Notes: a model not told the origin generated them from the sequence alone. A stretch of DNA of 64,000 nucleotides from Minisyncoccota bacterium (GCA_028711065.1 JAQTSY010000001.1:86610-150609), one strand, 5' to 3'. Positions 5,514 through 40,802 are shown, counted from the stretch's first letter. Made by a program: numbers and translations.

Positions 5514-5735
5514 CTAGTTCGGCTGAATGGACTGAAACGTCAGACACGCGGTGTTAACAATGAAGTACCCATTATCAACCTCGGGACTGACCACTTTAGC
5601 GAGGGTCCCTTCAACTGAGTCCAGGATGCCAACGACCATTGTGGGTTGAAAGCCCGCTTTTTGACCCCTATCTGCTCCTGCCCACTGAAGGAACAGGACG
5701 CGAACAGGTTTTCCGACAAGACTTTGAAGAATCAT
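5514..5735 (-). CDS. small hypothetical protein (73 aa)
   Basis: A perfect AGGAGG sits 7 nt upstream of the internal ATG ('MILQSLVGKPV...'). No family recognised. Confidence 0.45.
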   Translation of the reverse strand: MILQSLVGKPVRVLFLQWAGADRGQKAGFQPTMVVGILDSVEGTLAKVVSPEVDNGYFIVNTACLTFQSIQPN

Positions 5736-20362: not shown

Positions 20363-20372
20363 TGAAGAAGCG

Positions 20373-20400
20373 AAAAAGTTGCCTTGCAAGGCAACTTTTT
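20373..20400 (+). terminator. dnaK intrinsic terminator
   Basis: 'aaaaagttgccttgcaaggcaacttttt'. A second hairpin, 'agccacagaaa..tttctgtggct' at 20416-20444, serves the convergent minus-strand gene. Confidence 0.7.
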
Positions 20401-20462
20401 CGCGCACAAACAGAAAGCCACAGAAAATGTGACTTTCTGTGGCTGAAAACTTCTCAAACCAC

Positions 20463-22716: not shown

Positions 22717-22951
22717 CATTATTGATAAAGGTTTGACTTTGATATAGAAATATTGTTATAGTGCAATCATGAATAACGGACTTCAGAAATCAATCCATCA
22801 TCGCAACTCAACCAAACTTGGCGAGGGGTTGTCTTGATATTTCTTCAAATTTCATATAAAGAAAACCCCTTCTCAAGTTTGAGAGGGGGTTTTCTTTTGT
22901 CTACCCGCATTCCGCAAAATGGCAAAATAGTTCTTTGAGAGGAGAGTCCCC

Positions 22952-35401: not shown

Positions 35402-35716
35402 TTGACACTATTTTTACCTCCTGTATAGTAAATACAGATTCTTTACAACTGCAATATCTACGTATAGGTCCCTTGGCTTAGGCTTAAGGGATTGGGCCTA
35501 TGCAGTTCGCGTAAGCGAGCAAGATGATTTCTGCGCAAGTGGAAATCCGGTCTCCTCCGTTACAAGGATAATCGATGTCTGCCGAAAGGCGTATGAGTCG
35601 ATGAGTGGAACAAAAAAGACCCGCTCGGGTATTTTTTGTTCCTGAAACCCAAGGTGGTACCGCGGAAAACCCGCCCTTGATGCATATTTCGATATGCGTC
35701 GAAGGCGGGTTTTTTG
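35402..35716 (+). promoter_or_regulatory. T-box riboswitch leader (probable tRNA-Trp specificity) with its own sigma70-type promoter
   Basis: Promoter TTGACA-N16-TATAGT at 35402-35429. F-box 'CCGTTA' at 35558-35563. T-box sequence 'aaGGTGGTACCGCGG' at 35651-35665 (13 of 14 matches to AGGGUGGNACCGCG). Terminator 'cccgccc..ggcggg' followed by TTTTTT at 35670-35716. Candidate specifier 'UGG-A' lies in 'gcaagUGGAaauc'. Downstream are trpB-trpA-trpS. Confidence 0.75.
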
Positions 35717-35844
35717 CGTGTGATTGTAAAAATGGTTCATTTAAAAAGAGAGATTTCACCAAGTCAACGGAGTTCGCTTCCAATGTGGCAAGCGATCCCG
35801 AAATTACCGAGCGTCACCCGAAGGCGAGTAGAAAGGAAAAAACG

Positions 35845-36039
35845 ATGGAAACAAGAACTGACCGGACAGAGCTCCTTGAGCTTCTCCTCAAGGAACACCT
35901 CACCCCAGAGGAAGAGGCGAAGCTCGCTCAGAACGAGGGCGTGGCCAACGGACTCGTGGATACAATGCGGGGACGTTTGGTGAGTTTTGGTCTCCGCCCC
36001 AAAAACGGCGAGAAAGATCCACGCTGTTGGGCGCAGTAA
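35845..36039 (+). CDS. small GC-rich hypothetical ORF (64 aa) between the T-box leader and trpB
   Basis: RBS-like 'gaaaggaaaaaacgATG'. About 57% GC versus 40% background. Followed by hairpin 'ggcctcgtgcaatcacgacgaggcc' at 36064-36088 with a weak U-tract. Confidence 0.35.
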   Translation: METRTDRTELLELLLKEHLTPEEEAKLAQNEGVANGLVDTMRGRLVSFGLRPKNGEKDPRCWAQ

Positions 36040-36133
36040 CAGAAGTACTCTCTGAGAGATAAGGGCCTCGTGCAATCACGACGAGGCCTTCTATTAAAAT
36101 CAAATGTTTTCAGCTACTATTAGTTAAAATGCA

Positions 36134-37360
36134 ATGAAAAGAAAGGAAAAACAAAAAAATACATACGGCGGAGCATATGTTCCAGAAATGCTCGTTCACG
36201 CACTCAAAGAAATAGAAATTGAATTTGAGAAAGCTTTGAAAGATAAGCGGTTTCAGAAAGAATTTCGAGAACTTCTGCGCTCTTACAGCGGACGGCCAAC
36301 TCCGCTTATTTATGCTGGAAATCTCACCAAACATTTTGGCGGTGGTAAGTTATATCTTAAAAATGAAGGCGCAAACCATACAGGAGCTCATAAAATCACT
36401 CATTGCTTAGGCCAAGCGCTCATCGCAAAAAGACTCGGGAAGAAAGAGCTAATTGCAGAGACTGGGGCAGGCCAGCATGGAGTCGCAACAGCAACTGTTG
36501 CCGCAAAGTTCGGTTTTAAATGCAAAATATTTATGGGAGAAGTTGATATCGCCCGTCAAAGACCGAACGTTTTCTGGATGGAACAACTTGGGGCGGAAGT
36601 CATAAGCGTTTCTTCGGGAAGTAAGACTTTGAAAGATGCCGTGAACGAAGCCCTCAAATATTGGATGGCTCATTCGGATGAGAGTTATTACGTGATTGGT
36701 TCTGTCCTCGGCCCCCATCCATATCCGGAAATGAATAGAACTTTCCAGTCGATTATCGGAGAAGAAATTCGTGAGCAAACAAGAAAAGCAGAAAAAAAGC
36801 TTCCTGATGTAGTTGTCGCCTGCGTGGGAGGCGGAAGCAACGCAATCGGCGCATTTTACGATTTTGTGAAAGAAAAAAATGTCCGACTTATCGGAGTTGA
36901 AGCGGGAGGAATCGGAAAAAGAGTCGGGGAAAATGCCATGCGAAAAGAAAATGGCAGCCTCGGAATCTTTCAGGGATACAAATCACTTTTTCTTCAGACG
37001 AGCGAAGGACATATCGCCCCCACGCATAGCGTAGCGGCAGGATTAGATTATCCGGGAATGGGGCCGGAACTCGCGACACTGTTTCGAGAGAAAAGAGTTG
37101 AACTTCAATCTGCAACTGATAAAGAAGCCGTCGAAGCATGTCTTCTTACGGCAAAACATGAGGGAGTTATTCCCGCACTTGAATCTTCACACGCACTTGC
37201 ATATGCGTATAAAATACTGCCGAAACTCTCGAAAAAAGAAGTGGTGGTGGTAAACGTATCAGGAAGAGGGGATAAAGACCTTTTCAATCTCACCAGATAC
37301 CTAAACCACAAGGAATTTAAAAAGTTTCTCGCAGAAGAAATTCAAAGATATGAAAAATAA
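36134..37360 (+). CDS. trpB: tryptophan synthase beta chain
   Basis: PLP-lysine region 'GGAHKITHCLGQA' and 'GGGSNAIG' motifs. TrpB1 length, 408 aa. Confidence 0.9.
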   Translation: MKRKEKQKNTYGGAYVPEMLVHALKEIEIEFEKALKDKRFQKEFRELLRSYSGRPTPLIYAGNLTKHFGGGKLYLKNEGANHTGAHKITHCLGQALIAKRLGKKELIAETGAGQHGVATATVAAKFGFKCKIFMGEVDIARQRPNVFWMEQLGAEVISVSSGSKTLKDAVNEALKYWMAHSDESYYVIGSVLGPHPYPEMNRTFQSIIGEEIREQTRKAEKKLPDVVVACVGGGSNAIGAFYDFVKEKNVRLIGVEAGGIGKRVGENAMRKENGSLGIFQGYKSLFLQTSEGHIAPTHSVAAGLDYPGMGPELATLFREKRVELQSATDKEAVEACLLTAKHEGVIPALESSHALAYAYKILPKLSKKEVVVVNVSGRGDKDLFNLTRYLNHKEFKKFLAEEIQRYEK

Positions 37361-38138
37361 TCTTGATCACATAATAGAAAAATTTGGCGAGAGAAAAAAG
37401 ACGGCAATTATGGCCCATCTTGTAACGGGATATCCGACTCTTGCTCTCTCGAAAAAAATTGCGCAGTCGCTTGTAGCCGGCGGAGCAGATATTATCGAAA
37501 TCCAGGTCCCTTTTTCTGACCCAATGGCAGACGGACCACTTATCGTTGAAGCTTGTCAGAAGTCCCTCGATAATGGAACCAAAGTAAAAGATAGTTTTGC
37601 GTTGGCTGAATTCGTAGAGGAGACTTTAAAAACTCCGGTGGTGCTTATGACATATGCAAATATTGTTATTCATATGGGTATCGAAAAATTCTGCGATGAG
37701 TGCAGAAAGTATAAAATTTCTGGAGTAATTGTCCCCGATCTTCCTTACGACTCAAAAGAGGGAAGGGAATTAAAGAAGCAGGCCGCGAGAAAAGAAATTC
37801 ATTTGATTTATGTTCTCTCTCCAGCGATAGAAAAAGAGAGGCTTGAGAAAATTTCTAGACAAGCAACTGGCTTTCTCTACTGCACATCGAGGCAGGGAAC
37901 TACCGGAACAGGAAAAAGATTTGCGAATGATTTGCATTCATATCTTAAAAGAGTTAAAAAAAGTTCTCATCTGCCTTTAGCTGTCGGATTTGGAATTTCC
38001 TCTCACAAAGACGTAAAAGAAATAAAACCCGAGGGAGATATTGCAGTCATTGGCAGTGCAATTATTGATCTTATACAAAAAACTCCAACACAAAAAACAT
38101 TGAAGACTATCGAAAAGTTCGTAGAAAGGTTGAAATAG
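37350..38138 (+). CDS. trpA: tryptophan synthase alpha chain
   Basis: TIM-barrel TrpA with 'IEIQVPFSDPMADGP' and a C-terminal 'GFGIS' phosphate-binding loop. Overlaps trpB by 11 nt. Confidence 0.85.
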   Translation: MKNNLDHIIEKFGERKKTAIMAHLVTGYPTLALSKKIAQSLVAGGADIIEIQVPFSDPMADGPLIVEACQKSLDNGTKVKDSFALAEFVEETLKTPVVLMTYANIVIHMGIEKFCDECRKYKISGVIVPDLPYDSKEGRELKKQAARKEIHLIYVLSPAIEKERLEKISRQATGFLYCTSRQGTTGTGKRFANDLHSYLKRVKKSSHLPLAVGFGISSHKDVKEIKPEGDIAVIGSAIIDLIQKTPTQKTLKTIEKFVERLK

Positions 38139-38181
38139 AGTTGGTTATACATAACAGCCTTATTTTGGTATTATTAACGCC

Positions 38182-39126
38182 ATGAAAAAAATCTTGCTTT
38201 CAGGGGTAAAGCCGACTGGCCGGCCTCATATCGGCAATTATTTCGGCGCAATGAAGCAATTTGTGGATCTTCAAGAGAATCACGAGAGCTACATTTTCAT
38301 CGCCGATCTCCACGCGCTCACTACAGTTCAGAATAAAGAAGAGATGAGCGAAAATATTTTGGGCGTTGCGCTTGATTATCTTGCAATCGGACTTGATCCG
38401 AAAAAAGTTACGCTTTACAAACAATCAGATGTCCCGCAAGTGGCCGAGCTTGGCTGGATATTCAACTGTCTTACTACGATGCCGTACCTTTCTCGCGCGC
38501 ACGCCTACAAAGATGCCGAGGCGAAAAATAAGGAGGTAAGCGTTGGTCTCTTTGATTATCCGCTTCTTATGGCGGCTGATATATTGATTCAAGACGCAAA
38601 CGTCGTACCAACAGGCCTCGACCAGAAACAGCATATTGAAATCACACGGGATACTGCGGAGAAATTCAATAGAATTTTCGGAGAAACGTTCAAAATGCCA
38701 GAACCGCTTATTCTCGAATCAGTAAAAGTGGTTCCAGGAATTGATGGCCAGAAAATGTCAAAGAGTTACAACAATACTATTTCACTTTTTGCCACAGACG
38801 AAGAAATCAAAAAAGCTGTAATGGGAATTGTCACGGATTCAAGCGCGGGAGTGCCAACCAATGTATATGCGATTCATTCACTCATCAGAAACAAGACAGC
38901 ACTCGACAAGTTGTATGAAGAGAAAAAAGGAAAGTACAAAGATCTGAAAGACGCGCTTATAGAAGATTTGATTGCGTTCATAAAACCAATGCGAGAAAAA
39001 AGGGAAGCGTTGGCGAAAGACAAAAAAGCAATCATCAAAATTCTGAAAGGAGGGGGCGAGCGAGCCCGCGAGCGAGCCGAAGCAAAGATGCAGATTGTAC
39101 GAGAGAAAATAGGAGTTGCACTCTAG
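38182..39126 (+). CDS. trpS: tryptophan--tRNA ligase
   Basis: 'GVKPTGRPHIGNYFGA' (the HIGH motif), 'KMSKS' and a length of 314 aa typical of TrpRS. Confidence 0.9.
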   Translation: MKKILLSGVKPTGRPHIGNYFGAMKQFVDLQENHESYIFIADLHALTTVQNKEEMSENILGVALDYLAIGLDPKKVTLYKQSDVPQVAELGWIFNCLTTMPYLSRAHAYKDAEAKNKEVSVGLFDYPLLMAADILIQDANVVPTGLDQKQHIEITRDTAEKFNRIFGETFKMPEPLILESVKVVPGIDGQKMSKSYNNTISLFATDEEIKKAVMGIVTDSSAGVPTNVYAIHSLIRNKTALDKLYEEKKGKYKDLKDALIEDLIAFIKPMREKREALAKDKKAIIKILKGGGERARERAEAKMQIVREKIGVAL

Positions 39127-39134
39127 AAGAAAAG

Positions 39135-39356
39135 TGGTATTATTTATCCATGCCAACGACCCGGCTGACACCGGCGAGGATGAAGAAAGAACGGAGTGAA
39201 GCCAAGGCCTAAATCGGCCAAAGCCGATCGGCCAAGTAGATTCTTCCGGGTAAGCCCGATATAGCGAGACAAGAGAAAGAAAGCGAGGTGGCACCGCGAC
39301 ACTCGTTCGCCCTCGCAAAAACAAAATTAATTTTGTTTTTGCGAGGGCGATTTTCT
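39135..39356 (+). promoter_or_regulatory. T-box riboswitch leader (probable tRNA-Asp specificity) upstream of aspS
   Basis: Extended -10 'TGgTATTAT' at 39135-39143. Hairpin 'ccggCUGACAccgg' at 39161-39174 and 'gGAUg' provide Asp-codon specifier candidates. T-box 'GGTGGCACCGCG' at 39287-39298, whose N=C pairs with the G73 of tRNA-Asp. Perfect terminator hairpin 'cgccctcgcaaaaac...gtttttgcgagggcg' plus a U-tract at 39308-39356. Confidence 0.7.
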
Positions 39357-39398
39357 TTTATTAACTAATCTGTACTACGATATATCGTAGTGAAAAAA

Positions 39399-40802
39399 AT
39401 GAAAGGACGAACATACATTGGTGAGTTGAAAGATATGGCAGGAAAAGAGGTGATGATAGCCGGCTGGGTGGATGTTCGGCGCGATCAGGGAAAACTTATC
39501 TTTTTTGATTTCCGCGATATGACGGGAACGGTGCAGGGCGTTATTTTACCGAAAGCAACCGAAGCTCACGCAGTAGGAGAAAAATTGCGTTCAGAATGGG
39601 TTGTCCAGGTCCACGGAAAAGTAAACGCTCGTCCAGAAAAAAATGTTCAAAAAGAGAAACTCAATGGCGCGGTAGAAATTGAAATTCTGTCAATACAAGT
39701 CCTAAACGAAGCGACAACTCCAGCATTTGATGTTGCGGGAGCGGGCTCTGAAATAAACGAGGAAACCCGGCTTAAATATCGATATCTCGACCTCCGTCGT
39801 CCTCGGATGCAGAAAAATGTTCGAGCACGGCACAAAATCCAGCAACTCGTCCGTAATTTCTTTACAGCAGAAAAATTCACCGAAATTGAAACTCCGCTCC
39901 TTTCTGCAACAACTCCGGAAGGTTCGCGAGATTATGTAGTTCCATCACGCCTTGAACCAGGGCATTTCTACGCACTTCCACAATCACCCCAGCAATACAA
40001 ACAGCTTCTTATGTCCGCTGGATTCGAAAAATATTTCCAATTTGCCCGATGTATGCGAGATGAAGATACGAGAGGGGATAGACAGCCGGAATTTACCCAA
40101 CTCGATATGGAGATGAGTTTTGTCGAACGCGATGATGTGATGGCGATAAATGAGAAAGTGCTTATCGAAGTGGTAAAAACGCTCTATCCTGAAAAGAAAA
40201 TCCAACAAATTCCTTTTCCGCGAATGACATATGACGAAGTAATGAAAAAATATGGAGTTGATAAGCCGGATATCCGAGAAAATAAAGAAGATCCGAATCT
40301 TTTGGCATTTCTCTGGGTAATTGATTTTCCGTTCTTTGAGAAAGATGACAAAGGAGGATGGACATTTACTCATAATCCATTTTCACGCCCGCAGAAAGAG
40401 CATACGGAATGGCTTATGGAAAAGAAAAATATCGGCGAAATAAAAACAACGCAGTACGATGTAGTGTTGAACGGCTACGAGATTGGTGGGGGTTCTATCC
40501 GAAATCACGACCCCAAAGCACTCAAAAAAGTGTTTGAAATTATGGGATATTCCGAAGAGAGAATTCAGCATAATTTCGGCCATATGCTCACAGCACTTGG
40601 CTCCGGCACACCCCCGCACGGAGGAATTGCGTGGGGTTTTGATCGATTTCTTATGCTTCTTCATAACGAACCAAATATCCGCGAGGTTATTCCATTCGCG
40701 AAAACTGGAGAGGGAAAGGATCCGATGATGGGCGCGCCGACGACGATTACCGACGAACAACTTCATGAACTCGGCATAAGCATCACCAAAAAGAAAAAAT
40801 AA
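39399..40802 (+). CDS. aspS: aspartate--tRNA ligase (compact, no GAD insertion)
   Basis: OB-fold N-terminus and class II core with the AspRS-specific 'LPQSPQQYKQLLM'. 467-470 aa. An alternative GTG start at 39390 is possible. Confidence 0.85.
   Translation: MKGRTYIGELKDMAGKEVMIAGWVDVRRDQGKLIFFDFRDMTGTVQGVILPKATEAHAVGEKLRSEWVVQVHGKVNARPEKNVQKEKLNGAVEIEILSIQVLNEATTPAFDVAGAGSEINEETRLKYRYLDLRRPRMQKNVRARHKIQQLVRNFFTAEKFTEIETPLLSATTPEGSRDYVVPSRLEPGHFYALPQSPQQYKQLLMSAGFEKYFQFARCMRDEDTRGDRQPEFTQLDMEMSFVERDDVMAINEKVLIEVVKTLYPEKKIQQIPFPRMTYDEVMKKYGVDKPDIRENKEDPNLLAFLWVIDFPFFEKDDKGGWTFTHNPFSRPQKEHTEWLMEKKNIGEIKTTQYDVVLNGYEIGGGSIRNHDPKALKKVFEIMGYSEERIQHNFGHMLTALGSGTPPHGGIAWGFDRFLMLLHNEPNIREVIPFAKTGEGKDPMMGAPTTITDEQLHELGISITKKKK

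Follow-up and report, generated by a model that had tools for sequence, protein, structure and literature searches.

A probable tRNA-Trp T-box riboswitch with a truncated Stem I upstream of trpB-trpA-trpS in a Minisyncoccota bacterium

The described systems closest to the leader reported here are the class I T-boxes of Firmicutes, such as that of B. subtilis tyrS and the Trp T-boxes of trp operons, trpS and rtpA, and the actinobacterial ileS T-boxes, which have a short or ultrashort Stem I, act at the level of translation, depend on an essential Stem II and are represented by structures from M. tuberculosis and N. farcinica (PMC7583486). The same 2020 review asks whether any T-box works without a kink-turn (K-turn) and deems one likely to be required in T-boxes that contain Stem II. 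We analyzed a 64,000-nucleotide (nt) stretch of a Minisyncoccota bacterium genome (JAQTSY010000001.1:86610-150609; hereafter the window) and found that the leader at 35436-35715, which precedes the genes for tryptophan synthase and tryptophanyl-tRNA synthetase (trpB-trpA-trpS), is very probably a transcription-attenuating T-box riboswitch specific for tRNA-Trp. It is part of a truncated, so far unannotated T-box lineage of genomes resembling those from the Candidate Phyla Radiation (CPR)/Patescibacteria and of groundwater metagenomes, in which such leaders are common, a lineage that is T-box in most of its defining features. No paper linking T-boxes with CPR, Patescibacteria or Parcubacteria was found in the set of papers searched, which was not exhaustive. 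This agrees with the initial annotation of the locus, according to which T-box annotations are rare beyond Firmicutes and Actinobacteria.

Switch elements, leader architecture and specifier codon

The 3' part of the leader contains the elements of a transcriptional switch (Table 1). The 14-nt conserved T-box sequence (…GGUGGNACCGCG…) is present as AAGGUGGUACCGCGG, and it lies in an antiterminator whose helices A1 and A2 are separated by the canonical 7-nt bulge UGGUACC (35655-61) and which folds at -10.2 kcal/mol on its own. The 3' strand of this antiterminator is also the 5' strand of an intrinsic terminator (35666-79 are common to both), and the two helices are mutually exclusive. Both alternatives formed when each was folded in isolation (35649-81 for the antiterminator, 35666-35716 for the terminator), and the complete leader of ~280 nt (about 35436-35715) folded with a z-score of -7.6 relative to shuffled sequences. 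The promoter that precedes the leader is the top promoter-like site between 35000 and 39600, a region in which the total number of such sites (6) was not above the 6.1 expected from shuffles; TTGACA-type promoters also lie directly 5' of the homologous leaders in two related loci, L011 and L022. These results bear out the initial annotation, which had proposed a tRNA-Trp T-box with its own promoter before trpB-trpA-trpS from the TTGACA-N16-TATAGT promoter, the F-box CCGUUA, a near-consensus T-box sequence and a strong terminator with a U6 tract, and had suggested folding the two alternatives. The proposal is further supported by the covariation, tRNA data and gene context described below.

Homologous leaders were collected from genomes and from metagenomes. 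Among 80 loci found through TrpB in the genome set, which we searched with motifs and with an nhmmer profile of three leaders, T-box leaders were present only in L011, an unclassified metagenome-assembled genome (MAG), and in L022, a Candidatus Kaiserbacteria MAG. Metagenome contigs were scanned with the pattern CCGTWA-N2-9-GATAAYNGATGTC-N8-30-GAGTC, which derives from the F-box and linker region and excludes the specifier. The pattern scan gave at least 120 stretches, from which 80 loci were returned, and the lineage counts reported here are counts among the matches listed. The flanks were leader-like in 78 of these 80 loci (the exceptions being L088 and L129), G-R-U-U-G-G-G lay upstream in nearly all of them, and three further loci (L087, L131 and L137) were not scorable for a T-box sequence. 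A T-run was found 3' of the T-box sequence in 77 of the 78 lineage members scored. In this set ~75 metagenome loci share the T-box architecture. For many of the member contigs the source is filtered groundwater, including the Hainich 0.1 and 0.2 µm fractions, and the metagenome members are probably of CPR origin.

Comparison of these sequences revealed a compact 5' domain. A shared parse of Stem I was obtained in ~65 loci and consists of a lower helix of 7-12 bp whose 5' strand ends in …UC, an upper helix (4-10 bp) whose loop varies, and a 5-nt 3' bulge, G-R-U-U-G, after which GG… closes the lower helix. In a set of 56 distinct Stem I sequences, with the parse anchored on conserved motifs, 99.8% of cells were paired and compensatory changes on both sides were seen in 9 of 11 pairs; the covariation score was 0.837 compared to 0.234 for shuffled sequences (0 of 500 shuffles reached 0.837) and no more than 0.18 for slid controls. 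The two pairs flanking the bulge, U.G and C-G, were invariant in this set. A3, a MAFFT alignment of 43 leaders made in the ordinary way and which we consider unbiased, had 98.5% of cells paired overall and changes on both sides in 22 of 34 pairs. In A3 the base helix P0, a 4-bp Watson-Crick helix abutting Stem II, had all four pairs changed on both sides (95.9% of cells paired); with the specifier hairpin and hairpin 2 inside it, P0 forms a three-way junction that replaces the K-turn-based base of Stem I.

The elements that follow are likewise recognizable. Stem II carries a conserved UGCRNNAGUG loop in place of the S-turn consensus AGUA/GAA. Of the two helices of the pseudoknot, IIA is invariant and IIB covaries at 2 pairs (UCGC/GCGA in L022, for example). 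The linker hairpin is an insertion relative to the Rfam T-box model RF00230 and is lineage-specific; it has 2 covarying pairs (ACUGA/UCAGU, AUUGA/UCAAU), and its invariance in the metagenome set is partly imposed by the search pattern itself. Stem III and the purines on either side of it were assigned according to a published motif definition (PMC7583486). Because this reduced architecture is kept with compensatory changes across ~75 diverged sequences, its structure appears to be under purifying selection. A 3-sequence MAFFT/RNAalifold alignment, in which Stem I of L022 was misaligned, had suggested that GGGCC pairs over a long range with the T-box bulge; with the larger set of sequences, this pairing was rejected as an artefact.

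On sequence grounds, the specifier is UGG at 35493-95, which matches the Trp genes downstream. UGGG was invariant in the 56 distinct Stem I sequences, and the bases flanking UGG vary (CUGGG in L090 and L117, AAUGGG in L140, GUGGG in L137). Two members, L140 (8360-8533, with trpB-trpA downstream) and L116 (3946-4119), have a canonical-type specifier loop, AGUA … GAA-UGG-G/A, together with a different Stem II, and have the look of transitional forms linking classical T-boxes to the truncated lineage; the homologous position in these two sets the frame of the common motif as GRU-UGG-G, corresponding to GAA-UGG-R. The upper helix is missing in L104 and L156, which carry a GRUUGGG-type motif in the terminal loop. 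We discarded the codon placement given by Rfam (…GUUCG/CGUA, near 35506-10), as this segment is the variable hairpin 2.

The discriminator end of the leader is in line with the same tRNA. At the variable position of the T-box bulge, 44 of the 78 members scored have C and 34 have U, never A or G, which yields UGGC or UGGU; in TBDB, U occupies this position in 46% of Trp T-boxes and is read as a G:U wobble (PMC7778990). Genes for tRNA-Trp(CCA) occur on two member contigs, 4-6.5 kb from the leaders (L087 12342-12418 and L097 4187-4263, both on the minus strand), and in each the discriminator is G73, the CCA end is encoded and the anticodon loop is CUCCAAA. The UGGU/UGGC bulge fits the G73 seen in these two tRNAs.

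Several observations weigh against this assignment. The end-to-end match to RF00230 (35445-35681) scored 40.2 bits (E-value 2.7e-7 local, 1.9e-5 for the whole 64-kb window), compared to a gathering score of 93 bits, and a standard scan at the gathering score finds no T-box and reported only a tRNA-Pro in the window. The covariance search recommended by the initial annotation therefore failed at the gathering score, where the refuting outcome named in that annotation, a lack of RF00230 matches, formally applies, and gave a full-length match under relaxed E-value thresholds. In that alignment the F-box, Stem III and T-box sequence have high posterior probability and ~67 Stem I model positions are skipped; the leaders of L011 and L022 are likewise sub-threshold (31.1 and 30.0 bits). 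The distal platform of Stem I (AG bulge and distal loop, interdigitated T-loops) was not found; what lies above the specifier is just a helix of 4-10 bp and a variable loop of 3-20 nt, and the conserved tandem G.A signature was not seen in the 43 leaders of A3, which suggests that a K-turn is absent. The predicted free fold pairs G35495, the third base of the codon, and G35496 with the invariant 5' C and U, so that full exposure of the codon would need these pairs to open. No tRNA-Trp gene of the organism itself was found within the 64-kb window. Finally, a strong hairpin stands between the small open reading frame (ORF) behind the leader and trpB, and control of trpB-trpA-trpS would require read-through. 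Neither "textbook" nor "classic" is thus apt for a leader at under half the gathering score and without distal platform and K-turn. Lacking both the AG bulge/distal loop platform and a K-turn signature, the lineage is better described as a T-box that acts on transcription and whose Stem I is naturally truncated. Since annotation at the gathering score misses such leaders, current genome records give no view of how tRNA charging regulates genes in CPR/Patescibacteria.

Table 1. Features of the leader, its downstream genes and other elements discussed in the text.
Feature	Position	Strand	Details
Sigma-70-type promoter	35402-35429	+	TTGACA-16 nt-TATAGT; 11/12 matches; probable start near 35436
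Base helix P0	35456-35525	+	AUCU 35456-59 with AGAU 35522-25
Truncated Stem I (specifier hairpin)	35462-35503	+	lower 35462-70 with 35495-503; upper 35471-76 with 35484-89
Stem I loop and 3' bulge	35477-83; 35490-94	+	bulge GAUUG; same in the window's own fold
Specifier UGG (predicted)	35493-95	+	followed by purine G 35496; within invariant G-R-U-U-G-G-G
Hairpin 2	35505-35520	+	UCGC-GUAA-GCGA core; variable, often GNRA-capped, missing in some relatives
Stem II	35526-35547	+	GAUUUC/GAAAUC; conserved loop UGCRNNAGUG; 6/6 pairs covary; aligns to Rfam Stem II
Stem IIA/B pseudoknot	35548-35568	+	CGG 35548-50 with CCG 35557-59; UCCU 35553-56 with AGGA 35565-68
F-box	35557-35562	+	CCGUUA; within IIA/B pseudoknot
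Linker hairpin	35571-35602	+	AUCGAU..GUCGAU closing GUC-[GCC GAAA GGC]-..GAG
Stem III	35608-35641	+	5' flank GAGUG (RRRxG-like), 3' ..GAAA..; discriminator domain
Antiterminator	35650-35679	+	A1 35650-54 with 35675-79; A2 35662-65 with 35671-74
T-box sequence	35651-65	+	AAGGUGGUACCGCGG; RF00230 posterior probability near 1
Intrinsic terminator	35666-35713 (hairpin); 35710-15 (U6)	+	-30.5 kcal/mol, z -7.3
64-amino-acid (aa) ORF	35845-36039	+	good ribosome-binding site (AAAGGAAAAAACG-ATG); start 130 nt past terminator
Hairpin	36062-36090	+	-17.1 kcal/mol, z -5.2; then interrupted U-tract (UUCUAUUAAAAU)
trpB (TrpB1 type)	36134-37360	+	TIGR00263, 570 bits; Pfam
trpA	37350-38138	+	TIGR00262; Pfam; 11-nt overlap with trpB end
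trpS	38182-39126	+	TIGR00233; Pfam
Second T-box, Asp-type	39147-39360	+	RF00230 match 39147-39317, 28.1 bits, E-value 1.8e-4 local, 0.025 for window
aspS	39390-40802		
Sub-threshold Rfam match, CRISPR-DR15	5626-5652	-	26.5 vs 36 bits
Sub-threshold Rfam match, RNAI	20370-20451	-	32.3 vs 47 bits
Sub-threshold Rfam match, ribosomal protein L10 leader	22763-22904	+	29.2 vs 44 bits
Putative attenuator regions	L001 2420-2660; L002 2500-2700; L003 2520-2730		

Regulated genes and competing explanations

By analogy with the established T-box mechanism, transcription from the promoter at 35402-29 would yield a nascent RNA that presents UGG (35493-95) in the short Stem I, beside Stem II and the IIA/B pseudoknot. 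The CCA anticodon of tRNA-Trp would pair with this codon, and A37 possibly with U35492. If the tRNA is uncharged, its 3' GCCA would pair with UGGU at 35655-58 and, with support from Stem III, stabilize the antiterminator at 35650-79, and the antiterminated polymerase would read into the 64-aa ORF and, most likely, into trpB-trpA-trpS. If the tRNA is charged, the far more stable terminator (35666-35715) would form and transcription would stop at the U6 tract (35710-15).

The three trp genes exceed NCBIfam equivalog cut-offs and match Pfam, as expected from the initial annotation, and are followed by aspS and scpA. That annotation had placed the T-box immediately before trpB; we found that a small ORF and a strong hairpin intervene. 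The layout is the same in L011 and L022, where a consensus promoter, leader, terminator, 57-58-aa ORF and strong hairpin precede trpB. The 64-aa ORF of the window has a single Trp codon (36028-30), three codons before its stop, and no Pfam or NCBIfam match. Despite this Trp codon, a second, ribosome-mediated attenuator formed by the small ORF and hairpin was not supported, as no convincing alternative pairing was seen. A 14-mer, GTTCGCTTCCAATG, is common to the window (35772-35785) and L001 (2718-2731) in the small-ORF frame; because it precedes the annotated ATG in frame, the true start of the window's ORF may lie further upstream, GTG 35785 being one candidate. The small-ORF proteins of the window and L001 gave no BLASTP alignment despite this 14-mer. 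A specifier-like heptamer, GUUGGGC, recurs at 36026-36032, around the Trp codon of the small ORF, and GGGUUGGGCU occurs at L001 2645-2654, just before the small-ORF start; this recurrence may be due to chance, with an expectation of roughly 2% per 400 nt.

The hairpin at 36062-90 may act in RNA stability or as a partial terminator, and because it could terminate in part, direct control of trpB-trpA-trpS by the T-box is likely rather than proven. If it were instead an efficient terminator, the T-box would control the 64-aa ORF only and trpB-trpA-trpS would be served by a separate, T-box-independent promoter, an arrangement that we consider unlikely. The strength of the hairpin and the U-rich stretch next to it are in line with such a role, as are the equivalent hairpins 3' of the small ORFs in L011, L022 and L001-L003 and the lack of a visible Shine-Dalgarno sequence before trpB. 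However, nothing promoter-like was found between 36090 and 36134 in our scan, the U-tract of the hairpin is interrupted or offset in all homologues, and the order leader/small ORF/hairpin/trpB is conserved across distant genomes. Furthermore, trpB or trpS is the first long gene past the T-box in many loci, and in L001-L003 a Trp-codon attenuator occupies the T-box position before the small ORF and trpB, which is sensible only if the unit responds to Trp.

The choice of codon and the integrity of the switch were also weighed. The initial annotation had named a UGG followed by A as the specifier candidate, and this UGG-A does exist, at 35540-43; it falls in the loop and 3' strand of Stem II, where conservation of UGG-A is lacking, and the specifier was assigned to 35493-95 instead. 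That UGG-A is nevertheless the codon, and the upstream hairpin merely structural, is very improbable: it occurs in both the window and L022, and the purine after it is canonical, but the segment aligns to RF00230 Stem II, its G's belong to the covarying 3' strand, and only AGUG is conserved at this site across the lineage, many members reading AGUGA, AGUGU or AGUAG (among them L085, L094, L097, L101 and L147). UGG-A is missing altogether in L011, whereas the UGGG of Stem I is invariant. To a similar degree we doubt that the leader is a decaying relic that no longer switches and whose low Rfam score reflects erosion in a reduced genome. The sub-threshold score and the state of L001-L004, which lost the T-box or never had one, would suit such a history, but every functional element is intact in the window and the compensatory changes across the ~75 sequences speak for maintenance.

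Least credible is a leader that senses another tRNA, such as tRNA-Leu via UUG at 35492-94, which makes up the last three bases at the bulge's 3' end, where a codon canonically lies, and whose U35492 is conserved in >90% of members: we consider the Leu reading excluded because UUG is lost and UGG kept in L090, L117, L140 and L137, GAA-UGG-R is found in L140 and L116, Trp genes dominate downstream with no Leu genes among them, and the UGGC of 44 of 78 members misfits A73, which is usual in bacterial tRNA-Leu, and fits the G73 of tRNA-Trp.

Related leaders and other loci

With the leader read as a tRNA-Trp T-box, we examined the genes behind its homologues. TrpB, TrpA or TrpS is encoded downstream in at least 21 loci, and the order T-box/small ORF/trpB-trpA-trpS recurs in L022 and L105. 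In L103, L147 and L123 a TrpD-like protein is encoded downstream, and L157 has a fused TrpE-G there. The genes behind these Trp-type leaders, including those described next, suggest candidate functions in tryptophan acquisition for organisms that draw most of their building blocks from hosts.

UGG-type T-boxes also precede genes without an obvious Trp link. These include a pair formed by a YbdK/GCS2-like carboxylate-amine ligase and an AstE/AspA-like deacylase (L092, L098, L115, L150, L154), phosphoenolpyruvate (PEP)-synthase-like proteins of 750-840 aa (PRK05849; L094, L128, L151), EamA-family transporters (L094, L123), a GNAT acetyltransferase (L081) and a low-molecular-weight phosphatase (L087); L098 additionally encodes a GATase_4 protein, an LD-carboxypeptidase and a methyltransferase. 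Such genes are candidates for a Trp-starvation regulon. Two small-protein families are also recurrently encoded directly behind Trp T-boxes, a ~56-aa Zn-ribbon protein (CxxC…CPEC…GNGWG) and a ~66-aa protein (MTLSEIAE…GIWENP.PGV…RLW), with pairwise E-values down to 1e-20. They are located between the T-box and trpB/trpS in L083, L095, L101, L106, L109, L124, L130 and L132, and also at L002 2715-2930. This arrangement is reminiscent of the T-box-controlled, Zn-binding anti-TRAP of B. subtilis. The initial annotation had further suggested indole salvage in a genome otherwise devoid of the trp pathway, a tentative reading for a 64-kb stretch; within the window, tblastn gave no match to TrpD-like, TrpE-G, TrpR-like, EamA, GCS2-like, AstE-like or PPDK-like proteins, and TrpD-like and TrpE-G genes do follow other leaders of the lineage, as noted above. 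One further leader, L085 (4240-4412), has AUCGGGCC in place of UUGGGCC, readable as a CGG or UCG codon, and a poorly formed Stem I; it precedes two ~160-aa proteins and then ligA, and may have a different specificity or be a degenerate copy.

A broader reading is a serious, still tentative possibility. The window's leader may be the first recognized member of an undescribed CPR/Patescibacteria-like T-box lineage that senses tRNA-Trp co-transcriptionally without elbow platform or K-turn, the two Stem I devices considered to position tRNA and Stem II, relying in their place on a GRUUGGG bulge of minimal size, a Stem II with a short loop and a linker hairpin that is new, and that defines a Trp-starvation regulon in ultrasmall bacteria which includes the YbdK/GCS2-like ligase and AstE/AspA-like deacylase, the PEP-synthase-like proteins, the EamA transporters and the small Zn-ribbon proteins. 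As a transcriptional T-box with Stem II and with neither platform nor K-turn, the lineage offers a natural experiment in how small a T-box can be. Riboswitches are considered promising for inducible expression in a perspective on Patescibacteria genetics (PMC11665869), and this compact native tRNA-responsive leader is a candidate part for that use.

The closest relatives appear to be regulated differently. The nearest TrpB proteins (83-84% identity) belong to Candidatus Nomurabacteria and Paceibacterota MAGs, which places the window in the CPR/Patescibacteria, and motif and nhmmer profile searches found no T-box before trpB in the four closest, L001-L004. L001-L003 encode a 30-35-aa leader peptide with tandem Trp codons (…SWWGA…, e.g. 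MMVLDKFKLNNKRTGKSWWGAELNAFALFC), followed by segments (GGCGCAG / UUGCGCU / AGCGCAA / GCGCUG) capable of 1:2, 2:3 and 3:4 pairing and then by a U-run. As judged from these motifs, a trp attenuator of the E. coli kind occupies the homologous position in the three loci, ahead of the small ORF and trpB. A TrpR-like gene lies upstream in L002 (read from the translation only) and in L003 (TIGR01321, E-value 1.6e-11, below cut-off), and ACTAG repeats are present at the promoter in L001-L003. In the window, by comparison, neither a short ORF with tandem Trp codons nor a TrpR-like gene is present beside the operon. This looks like regulatory turnover, at one locus in close relatives, between two mechanisms that sense tRNA charging, the T-box on the one hand and the leader peptide with a TrpR-like gene on the other.

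The window contains a second T-box, missed by the initial annotation, which lies before aspS and is of Asp type. Its T-box sequence is GCGAGGUGGCACCGCGAC, with a UGGC bulge. An ultrashort Stem I, the hairpin CCGG-CUGACA-CCGG (39162-75), puts GAC (Asp) followed by A in the terminal loop, and the base of the leader, GA..GAG, is K-turn-like, while its Stem II is of the canonical GAA/AGUA type. This T-box includes the 20-bp terminator at 39307-50, a hairpin that is therefore not simply the terminator of trpS. Three other Rfam matches in the window are below threshold and are listed in Table 1.

Comparison with described T-boxes and attenuators

Like the class I T-boxes of Firmicutes, the leader has the 14-nt T-box sequence and a 7-nt UGGN antiterminator opposed to a terminator, a Stem III, and a Stem II followed by a IIA/B pseudoknot with the F-box. 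The specifier, as assigned here, is on the 3' side of Stem I with a purine next to it and matches the regulated genes, and U or C would stand opposite G73, as in other Trp T-boxes. It is unlike them in that only 4-10 bp and a loop lie above the specifier, with no tRNA-elbow platform, and in that the 4-bp P0 helix and an optional second hairpin take the place of the K-turn. Moreover, all that is left of the specifier loop is 5'-UC / 5'-GRUUGGG, with the AGUA/GAA S-turn missing, the linker hairpin is a conserved addition, scores are 30-40 bits relative to the gathering score of 93, and the host belongs to the CPR/Patescibacteria.

The class II ileS T-boxes share with it a truncated Stem I without elbow platform and the retention of Stem II and IIA/B, which are expected to carry anticodon recognition. 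In L104, L156 and the neighbouring aspS T-box the codon is in the terminal loop, as in an ultrashort Stem I. In contrast, class II T-boxes sequester the Shine-Dalgarno sequence, keep a K-turn and are specific for Ile, whereas the window's leader has a terminator with a U6 tract, no K-turn signature and Trp specificity, and its Stem II loop reads UGCRNNAGUG, in which an AGUA/GAA S-turn is not evident.

Finally, the arrangement resembles the E. coli trpL/TrpR attenuator in that charging of tRNA-Trp would control read-through into trp genes. Unlike trpL, in which a stalled ribosome reports the charging state, the leader described here is modeled to do so by direct contact between RNA and tRNA.

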